A program made the translations under genes and the position numbers. A stretch of 64,000 nt of DNA from Candidatus Omnitrophota bacterium. GTDB taxonomy: Bacteria > Omnitrophota > Gorgyraeia > Aquiviventales > Aquiviventaceae. Below are positions 15,132 through 15,680 of this stretch, piece by piece. The stretch spans positions 6,067-70,066 of the forward strand of contig JAHFGV010000005.1 of assembly GCA_023247255.1 (NCBI GenBank). The letters run 5' to 3'. The notes under the pieces are model-generated. The model did no database searches and was not told the DNA's origin. It saw nothing but the letters and a program-made list of their open reading frames with translations. Position 1 is the stretch's first letter; each line of letters starts with the position of its first letter.

Positions 15132-15392
15132 ATGACCAAGGGACTGGTGGCGCCGATATCCTCCAAGGGGCAGGTGACACTCCCAAAAGGTGTGCGCGAG
15201 CTCCTTCACGTAGAGCGTGGCGACTATATCCGCTTTGAGCCAAAGGTTGACGGAGTATGGGTCACAAAAATCCGGCTTGAGCCAGAGGGGTTCTCTGAGA
15301 ATGAGTGGAAGACCCTTGAGCGTTTAGCGCGTCAGAAAGGTAAGCGATACACCGATGCAAAGGCCTTTCTCAAAGATCTCGAAGCGCTCTGA
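15132..15392 (+). CDS. AbrB/MazE (SpoVT_AbrB)-type antitoxin
   Basis: 86 aa from MTKGLVAPISSKGQVTLPKGVRELLHVERGDYIRFE (swapped-hairpin AbrB-like). A RelE/ParE-like gene follows 9 nt later. Confidence 0.6.
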   Translation: MTKGLVAPISSKGQVTLPKGVRELLHVERGDYIRFEPKVDGVWVTKIRLEPEGFSENEWKTLERLARQKGKRYTDAKAFLKDLEAL

Positions 15393-15401
15393 TGCGTTCT
15401 G

Positions 15402-15680
15402 ATGCGTTATGAGCGCAAGCCATCCTTTAGCCGGTCTCTGCGACGTTTGCCCCCTGATCGGAAGGTACGCATCAAAGATGCGATTCGCAACCTTGTGATC
15501 TTCCTCGAAACCAAACAGCAGCCGCATGGGCTTGGCTTAAAACGTCTGCGAGCAGACTACTGGCAGGTGCGGGCAGGATTGGGGGATCGGGTTATCTTCC
15601 GACTGGTCGATGACCTCATTGAGTTTGTGATTGTTGGGAGTCATGATGAGATCCAACGGTTTCTACGTCATTCCGTTTGA
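15402..15680 (+). CDS. RelE/ParE-family toxin
   Basis: 92 aa. LKRLRADYWQVRAGLGDRVIFRLVDDLIEFVIVGSHDEI matches the RelE/ParE core pattern G-x-Y-R-x-R-x-G-D-Y-R-i-i-Y ... H. Confidence 0.55.
   Translation: MRYERKPSFSRSLRRLPPDRKVRIKDAIRNLVIFLETKQQPHGLGLKRLRADYWQVRAGLGDRVIFRLVDDLIEFVIVGSHDEIQRFLRHSV

Follow-up and report, generated by a model that had tools for sequence, protein, structure and literature searches.

A toxin-antitoxin cassette behind a duplicated atpG end in the ATP synthase operon of an Omnitrophota bacterium and its relatives

The accessory genome is the usual home of toxin-antitoxin (TA) modules, where they are volatile passengers, and the ATP synthase operon is among the most conserved in bacteria. 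The two have been found side by side in Caldalkalibacillus thermarum, where the ndh1 and F1Fo ATP synthase operons are closely followed by mazEF (PMC7561548). Here we describe a TA pair inside such an operon, at positions 15132-15680 of a 64,000-nucleotide (nt) stretch of contig JAHFGV010000005.1 from Candidatus Omnitrophota bacterium (the window, to which all coordinates without a locus prefix refer). As in C. thermarum, a TA module is physically at the atp locus; that module is outside the operon, whereas the window pair sits between two F1 subunit genes, atpG and atpD, and is conserved across lineages. The searchable literature yielded reports of TA modules near atp operons only and none of a TA pair within one, and two recent Omnitrophota genome surveys contain nothing on such a pair. 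The TA system is of an ordinary kind; its location is unusual and unusually stable. We put a probability of roughly 0.6 on the following explanation: a mobile type II TA cassette entered the 3' end of atpG in a single capture event, was then inherited mainly vertically with losses, and is transcribed with the operon.

Several described systems resemble the cassette in part. Like RelBE, YefM-YoeB and DinJ-YafQ, the pair has a RelE-fold toxin of about 90 amino acids (aa), an antitoxin gene placed first, a start/stop overlap between the two genes (in the relatives of the window) and a palindrome in its promoter. Unlike them, it has an antitoxin of AbrB/SpoVT fold rather than of ribbon-helix-helix or Phd/YefM type, a toxin that scores under every Pfam toxin cut-off, and a place inside an essential operon. 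An AbrB-type antitoxin paired with a RelE-fold toxin is also found in PrlF-YhaV of E. coli, and the window antitoxin has weak matches to PrlF models. However, these scores are far under the cut-offs (PF15937, 18.8 bits against 32; NF007429, 22.2 bits against 125), the toxins have no detectable sequence relationship, and the window toxin has 92 aa compared to about 150 for YhaV. TA cassettes of chromosomal (super)integrons are similarly compact, promoter-bearing, repeat-bounded and sometimes tandem (as at locus L107, see below), but the window repeats are direct copies of the target gene end, not attC-type imperfect palindromes, and no integron integrase was seen in a tyrosine recombinase tblastn search of the window, no dedicated attC or IntI model having been run. 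Integrase-mediated islands at gene 3' ends and their reduced, integrase-free derivatives that retain attL/attR (CIME-like elements) share with the cassette repeats of tens of bp, a left copy that restores the target gene and a displaced end at the right border, and one member of the toxin family (L089) adjoins a tyrosine integrase. The window unit differs from these elements in its size of about 650 bp, in having no integrase in cis, and in that its mobility is putative.

The window carries a complete F1Fo operon on the plus strand, with two extra co-oriented open reading frames (ORFs) between atpG (F1 gamma subunit, 14164-15060; Pfam ATP-synt, 264 bits, supported also by the sequence and the gene ends of relatives) and atpD (F1 beta subunit, 15824-17239; Pfam ATP-synt_ab, 247 bits). 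These two ORFs are the whole ORF content of the cassette. The antitoxin gene (86 aa, 15132-15392), preceded by a Shine-Dalgarno sequence AAGGAGG at 15116-15122, lies upstream of the toxin gene (92 aa, 15402-15680) in the same orientation, with 9 nt between them. An earlier note, made from the letters of the window alone, had placed a co-oriented AbrB/MazE-type antitoxin and RelE/ParE-type toxin at 15132-15680 at the atpG-atpD junction, and its ORF coordinates are exact. The atpG-atpD gap is 764 nt in the window, compared to less than 130 nt in most of the 78 loci from GTDB species genomes where atpD follows atpG, and the cassette genes occur in none of 80 atpG loci from GTDB species genomes. 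An assembly artefact is ruled out by the identical junction in more than ten independent assemblies (ENA, JGI, Logan and NCBI, including L001-L003). The exact window proteins were also found on several short metagenome contigs with the junction unchanged, and there is no paralogous copy of the pair elsewhere in the window. In the Saccharibacteria loci L034, L035 and L054, an unrelated ORF of about 160-175 aa occupies the atpG-atpD junction (gaps of 513-573 nt), so other phyla also have exceptions at this junction.

Insertion is supported most strongly by two features absent from the earlier note, a duplicated atpG 3' end and, with it, a conserved promoter that belongs to the cassette. A repeat search found a 28-nt direct repeat on the plus strand that brackets the cassette (15027-15054 and 15680-15707), identical at 25 of 28 positions. 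The left copy, inside the functional atpG 3' end, is the last 28 nt of the coding part; the right copy starts at the final base of the toxin stop codon, still reads IVGTAEALK and then TGA, and with this stop (15680-15710) represents the displaced atpG 3' end. The local alignment score of the repeat is 9.8 standard deviations (z) above shuffled sequences, and none of 288 control positions elsewhere in the window reaches a score of 18. All three mismatches are at synonymous third-codon positions (chance about 0.02). Beyond the right copy the native atpG-atpD junction resumes, with a long hairpin in its spacer. The cassette therefore has the borders of an integrated element, with direct repeats on both sides, a left copy that completes atpG and a displaced end that retains its stop codon; the duplication of its end is what preserved atpG.

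After the toxin, five of ten lineages still have a recognisable remnant of the atpG end, decayed to very different degrees (window, 25/28; L085, 34/44; L094, 15/19; L120, 13/14; L123, about 62%). We rejected the idea that a translated remnant extends the toxin, as the remnant is in frame past the toxin TGA in the window and out of frame in L085. The pattern that each remnant is most like the atpG of its own lineage was not robust: those of L085 and L120 match their own atpG best, and the window remnant is closer to the L094 atpG end. The window AtpG itself ends in EIVGTAEALKE, with one extra Glu codon (15058-15060) compared to the EALK or EALR endings of all close relatives and of its own remnant, suggesting that the live atpG end was remodelled at or after insertion.

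The cassette's sigma-70-type promoter, identified by a promoter scan and by comparison with relatives, is TTGACA-17-TATCCT (15065-15093, plus strand). It begins 4 nt past the atpG stop and is the best promoter-like site in 13900-17800, with 10 of 12 matches. A site of the form TTGAC[AG]-17/18-TAnnCT lies upstream of the antitoxin in 10/10 atp-embedded lineages and at the non-atp locus L097. In the relatives, the -10 box lies at the centre of an inverted repeat, GAAGTAAG-N5-CTTACTTC, with a compensatory operator variant in L084 (GAAATAAG/CTTATTTC). The corresponding operator-like repeat of the window (15080-15098, without strand) reads AAGCAAG-N5-CTTTTTT, its right half-site CTTTTTT being degenerate compared to CTTACTT in the relatives. 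Promoter and palindrome over the -10 box are kept in 10 lineages, and the layout is probably that of a classic autorepressed type II TA module, in which the antitoxin would bind the palindrome.

We then placed the pair among its relatives. By word-indexed search the toxin family is small (27 proteins, 49-77% identity); a full profile search returned 383 representative clusters. All toxin relatives of at least 65% identity whose context is readable have the order atpG-antitoxin-toxin-atpD, and the cassette is found at this junction in at least 10 related groundwater lineages (atp-embedded loci L084, L085, L086-88/L092, L090/91, L093, L094, L120/121, L122 and L123/124). By contrast with this fixed position, none of the 25 loci with toxin relatives of 44-60% identity has an atp gene within 5 kb, and the distribution of the family is patchy and independent of context. 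These relatives decide a question left by the earlier note, namely whether the pair might recur as conserved accessory genes of a non-TA kind. The same genes do stand at the same spot in at least ten lineages; the accessory role fails, since members of a dispersed TA family in unrelated contexts mark the window pair as TA genes and not ATP-synthase accessory genes. Judged by sequence and architecture, the cassette is a genuine type II TA pair with a presumably toxic second product.

In a neighbour-joining tree the atp-embedded toxins form one clade, the next branches being L095 and L089. At L095 (L095:224-385), the sister of the atp-embedded clade directly follows a comM/yifB-type gene at its 3' end (Mg_chelatase_C, 57 bits), and no flanking repeat was detected there. 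Compared to the window, the hosts of the atp-embedded pairs have AtpG identities of 57-62% over full-length matches (higher over short C-terminal fragments) and AtpD identities of 81-88%. The nearest named relatives of the TA-bearing hosts are Omnitrophota metagenome-assembled genomes, some labelled 'Planctomycetales', and the TA-bearing lineages are deeply diverged and probably Omnitrophota. A look-up of the exact AtpD sequence gave no record of an empty site in the same species.

Some of these hosts carry further genes near the cassette. In four loci (L085:2560-2938, L094:~770-1194, L120:727-1119 and L123:1609-2034) the interval from the TA remnant to atpD contains a small multi-pass membrane ORF (123-141 aa); these ORFs share a C-terminal motif, RPxV[KR]xxF[RQ], and have no Pfam match. 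In L086 and L091 a signal-peptide protein is encoded between the TA pair and atpD instead, and in L086 a paralogous ORF of 87 aa precedes the pair. TA-bearing L084 has a second small foreign gene in its atp operon, a 133-aa 23S_rRNA_IVP/bAvd four-helix-bundle gene between atpA and atpG (L084:4377-4778; PF05635, 125 bits).

Divergence among these lineages points to long residence and mostly vertical descent of a module that would be functional. Synonymous divergence is saturated between most lineages, and the ratio of nonsynonymous to synonymous substitution rates (dN/dS) is 0.03-0.3 for both TA genes, with values of 0.07-0.3 for the window antitoxin against its relatives. By these estimates, both cassette genes are shown to be under purifying selection. 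The closest TA pair, L086/L091 (91% identity, dS 0.42, dN/dS 0.12), also belongs to the closest hosts. GC content at third codon positions (GC3) of the TA genes tracks that of the host: it is 0.57 in the window (host 0.70) and 0.73-0.77 where the host is at about 0.93, and the window has no GC anomaly. TA identity correlates with AtpG identity (Spearman 0.55, from 21 non-independent pairs).

Under the explanation that we favour, a cassette in which its own promoter, with an operator-like palindrome, precedes the genes for an AbrB-fold antitoxin and a RelE/YoeB/YafQ-like toxin would have been captured once, at the extreme 3' end of atpG, in the ancestor of an uncultivated, probably Omnitrophota clade. 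At integration, at least 28-45 nt of the end of atpG would have been duplicated or carried in with the cassette, leaving atpG intact and the displaced original end, the native spacer and its hairpin 3' of the toxin. Mainly vertical inheritance would have followed, with several losses and with purifying selection on both genes, and the pair would be transcribed as part of the atp mRNA and also from its own, probably autorepressed, promoter. Selfish addiction would best account for its persistence, together with a site between two essential co-transcribed genes where an imprecise deletion would be lethal.

Several observations weigh against this history. Five related species have no pair (L004-L007 and L011), and TA-bearing and TA-less lineages interleave in the AtpG tree; L006, for instance, which has no pair, joins TA-bearing L084 and L124 with 99% bootstrap support. 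On this tree, one origin requires that an addictive module was lost four or five times independently. We conjecture that recombination between the flanking repeats would give scarless losses of the cassette. No two of the toxin, antitoxin and AtpG trees agree in full. The window remnant still matches the live atpG end at 25/28 positions despite saturated synonymous sites between lineages, and so good a match is more easily reconciled with a younger (recombination) event, with gene conversion or with constraint than with neutral decay following an ancient insertion. Finally, the window copy has unusual features. A 10-nt tandem duplication, CTGATGCGTT x2 (15389-15408, plus strand), seen in the sequence itself, sets the toxin ATG apart from the antitoxin stop and makes a 6-codon mini-ORF at 15392-15412; in all nine other atp-embedded lineages stop and start overlap by 1 nt. 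The toxin has Q at position 55, where 25 of 27 relatives have E. Together with the degenerate operator half-site, the duplication and Q55 may reflect a weakened toxin or altered regulation in the window.

The same data allow for an active mobile unit without an integrase that has inserted repeatedly at the atpG 3' end, so that the shared position would reflect target specificity and not common descent. Its movement would depend either on an integrase supplied in trans, with att-like repeats as its sites, or on Campbell-type recombination, with an excised circle that carries one copy of the atpG end. Long direct repeats do bracket cassettes of the family in unrelated contexts. At L097, a 62-nt repeat is the duplicated 3' end of an upstream 78-aa ORF, and both copies keep frame and stop (AREIQALVRAAQHLLKSA and FRDIQALVHAAQKLLAAA, each followed by a stop). 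At L110, a 34-nt repeat starts directly after a Fic gene. Three RelE/ParE-type TA pairs stand in tandem at L107:2957-5353, where the array is bracketed by a perfect 55-nt repeat (3688-3742 and 4475-4529) and a 62-nt repeat of 98% identity (3598-3659 and 5292-5353); the 55-nt and 62-nt repeats are partly inverted copies of each other. A repeat score of at least 20 was reached at 3 of 209 non-TA control positions in the same loci, TA regions and tandem repeats being excluded from this control. However, clear flanking repeats were found at just 3 of about 20 non-atp loci.

The repeat copies of the window differ at synonymous sites only, as if they came from two functional atpG genes, and the patchy presence of the pair in the AtpG tree is likewise what repeated insertion would produce. 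A further point comes from L001, whose first 25 nt (L001:1-25) differ from window 15000-15024 at 6 positions, upstream of the repeat, and which is then 100% identical over about 815 nt. Two origins of this 5' tip come into question, a breakpoint of recombination at the repeat and a chimeric assembly joined at a conserved k-mer; the second would remove the point. The AtpD N-terminus of L001 is identical to that of the window at the protein level. Several results oppose repeated insertion. Divergent hosts yielded no near-identical cassettes, and the most similar TA pair is that of the closest hosts. The GC3 of the TA genes follows the host value, and the atp-embedded toxins form a single clade. 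Tyrosine recombinase tblastn of the 64-kb window gave no integrase relative, and the cassette, with its two ORFs, contains no recombinase. The toxin family has no match in IMG/VR (viral) or PLSDB (plasmid), and we dismissed a phage or plasmid origin on this basis. Overall, we consider repeated insertion unlikely.

An integrase is found near the toxin family only at L089 and, weakly, at L113. At L089, the outgroup member of the family, a tyrosine integrase gene (L089:770-1750) begins 176 nt after the toxin, which is a further point for repeated insertion. The last 25 residues of this integrase are duplicated (88% identity) about 1.8 kb downstream, at 3505-3579, another insertion bracketed by a duplicated gene end. 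Taken together, the repeats suggest that the cassette family may enter gene 3' ends through a mechanism in which repeats of tens of bp are used or made. Possible routes are an integrase-borne element reduced to its TA module (compare L089) and Campbell-type recombination of an excised circle. We would go further only with considerable doubt, to a TA family that is an undescribed minimal, recombinase-less mobile cassette with a portable copy of a gene 3' end as attachment or homology site, inserting precisely behind that gene and leaving the displaced end as a direct repeat, its atpG lineage being wired into ATP synthase expression so that toxin translation or activity of the cassette promoter would gate atpD-atpC.

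The identity of the two proteins was examined with profile and structure comparisons. The antitoxin exceeds the cut-offs of Pfam MazE_antitoxin (PF04014, 26.2 bits against 24.7) and of TIGR01439 AbrB (32.9 bits against 28.3); residues 9-48 form the N-terminal AbrB/SpoVT (MazE-type) DNA-binding domain, and a C-terminal tail follows. The toxin has a single Pfam match, ParE_toxin (PF05016), at 19 bits (E = 0.002), under the gathering threshold of 23. Of the two family assignments in the earlier note, the antitoxin's was upheld by profile search, and the toxin's failed at the ParE_toxin threshold and is supported in its RelE fold by a structural model. This AlphaFold2 model, built on 27 homologues, has a predicted local distance difference test score (pLDDT) of 90.9 and a predicted template modelling score (pTM) of 0.80, with a secondary structure of a beta strand, two helices, four beta strands and a C-terminal helix. 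Among PDB structures, Foldseek ranks M. jannaschii RelE3, YafQ, HP0894, YoeB and HigB highest (probability 1.00, template modelling (TM) scores 0.65-0.75). A profile of 118 toxin family members matched YoeB, RelE3 and HigB chains in the PDB at a marginal E of about 0.03, and weak Pfam matches among these members were confined to families of the RelE/ParE clan, with ParE_toxin at E of 0.01 or less in 9 of the 118. The comparisons and the predicted model confirm 15132-15392 as an AbrB/MazE-fold antitoxin and 15402-15680 as a toxin of the RelE/ParE superfamily.

Within this superfamily the toxin is probably a ribosome-dependent mRNA endonuclease of the RelE/YoeB/YafQ kind that would act as an RNase. 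H81 is invariant in the family, and E55, R57 and R63 are kept in at least 90% of members. In low-probability hhalign alignments these conserved Arg, His and Glu positions (E55, R57, R63, H81) fall on catalytic residues of known toxins, namely RelE K52, K54, R61 and R81, and also YoeB R65 and YafQ H63/H87. A ParE-type gyrase poison, suggested by the ParE_toxin label of the earlier note, would account for ParE_toxin being the sole Pfam match of the window toxin and for ParE_like and ParE_toxin being among the commonest weak matches across the family. Yet the ParE_toxin score is under the Pfam cut-off, the structural ranking is led by RelE3, YafQ, HP0894, YoeB and RelE with ParDE not appearing before rank 44, and the conserved residues align, in weak profile alignments, with those of RelE, YoeB and YafQ. 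We therefore regard a gyrase poison as distinctly improbable.

Whether the pair is co-transcribed with the ATP synthase genes or splits the operon in two was left as alternatives in the earlier note. Since no terminator-like site was found on the plus strand between atpG and atpD, nor any plus-strand promoter-like site besides the cassette's own, the evidence leans towards a cassette that would be co-transcribed with the atp operon and would not split it. The short distance of 11-38 nt from toxin stop to atpD start in L084, L093 and L122 is in line with this. Transcripts of atpD-atpC would most probably start at the atp promoter or at the cassette's own promoter (P_TA) and run through the cassette. 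As the cassette would lie within the atp mRNA, atpD and atpC would be expressed from transcripts that pass through it.

The GC-rich hairpin that the earlier note had described after the pair exists, at 15725-15803 on the plus strand (core 15741-15788, from RNA folds), and does not belong to the insert. TA-less relatives L005, L006 and L013 have comparable long hairpins in their atpG-atpD spacers, so the hairpin is part of the operon's native spacer. For the same reason, and given that no plus-strand terminator-like site was found, we rejected the hairpin as a part of the cassette or as a terminator. The L005 spacer hairpin is built of heptamer repeats, GCGACAA/GCAACAA (CTTGTCG/CTTGTTG on the other strand), and such heptamers also form a tandem array with a 14-nt period at L110:4140-4349, about 400 nt downstream of the TA pair.

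Fold prediction also pairs the last toxin codons and first remnant bases (15671-15684) with the region of the atpD Shine-Dalgarno sequence (15805-15815; the Shine-Dalgarno, GGAGAG, is at 15812-15817) across the hairpin, with pair probabilities of 0.67-0.78 for a single, GC-rich sequence. Speculatively, this predicted pairing could couple toxin translation to atpD initiation. It bears on the least probable of the alternatives, in which the pair has been co-opted to regulate ATP synthase expression or energy status and is kept for host benefit and not by addiction, with toxin translation or P_TA activity controlling atpD-atpC supply or the module sensing atp-operon transcription. Such a role would suit the unusually long tenure of one intra-operon position under purifying selection, the toxin stop only 11-38 nt from the atpD start in L084, L093 and L122, and the attenuating-looking changes of the window copy, but the operon does without the pair in at least five related lineages, the architecture is typical of TA modules with relatives in unrelated contexts, the pairing is a single-sequence prediction in GC-rich sequence with a whole-region fold z-score of -1.4, and in four or five lineages extra unrelated ORFs lie between toxin and atpD.

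The remaining genes of the operon, all on the plus strand, are atpB (10077-10928), atpE (10957-11199), atpF (11261-11773), atpH (11941-12489) and atpA (12494-14038), assigned from the ORF list and Pfam, and its last gene, atpC (epsilon subunit, 17321-17611), assigned from the ORF list and tblastn to the atpC of relatives. At gathering thresholds, Rfam has only three matches in the window, a Moco (molybdenum/tungsten cofactor) riboswitch at 53228-53385 (61.6 bits) and two tRNA genes (19140-19213 and 23769-23842), and no family in the cassette region.

What sets this locus apart is a TA module lodged between two ATP synthase subunit genes, its position kept under purifying selection across lineages with saturated synonymous sites. 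It offers a natural case of how an essential operon can take up a selfish module and stay unbroken, with the duplication at the gene end showing how atpG survived, and of how such a module may persist through addiction, positional protection or co-option. It also offers a case in which to consider how internal autoregulated promoters affect the stoichiometric expression of ATP synthase subunits. The long flanking repeats at related cassettes hint at an insertion mechanism for small TA cassettes. If the doubtful reading of the family as a recombinase-less mobile cassette were true, it would link a toxin-antitoxin switch to the energy supply of the cell.

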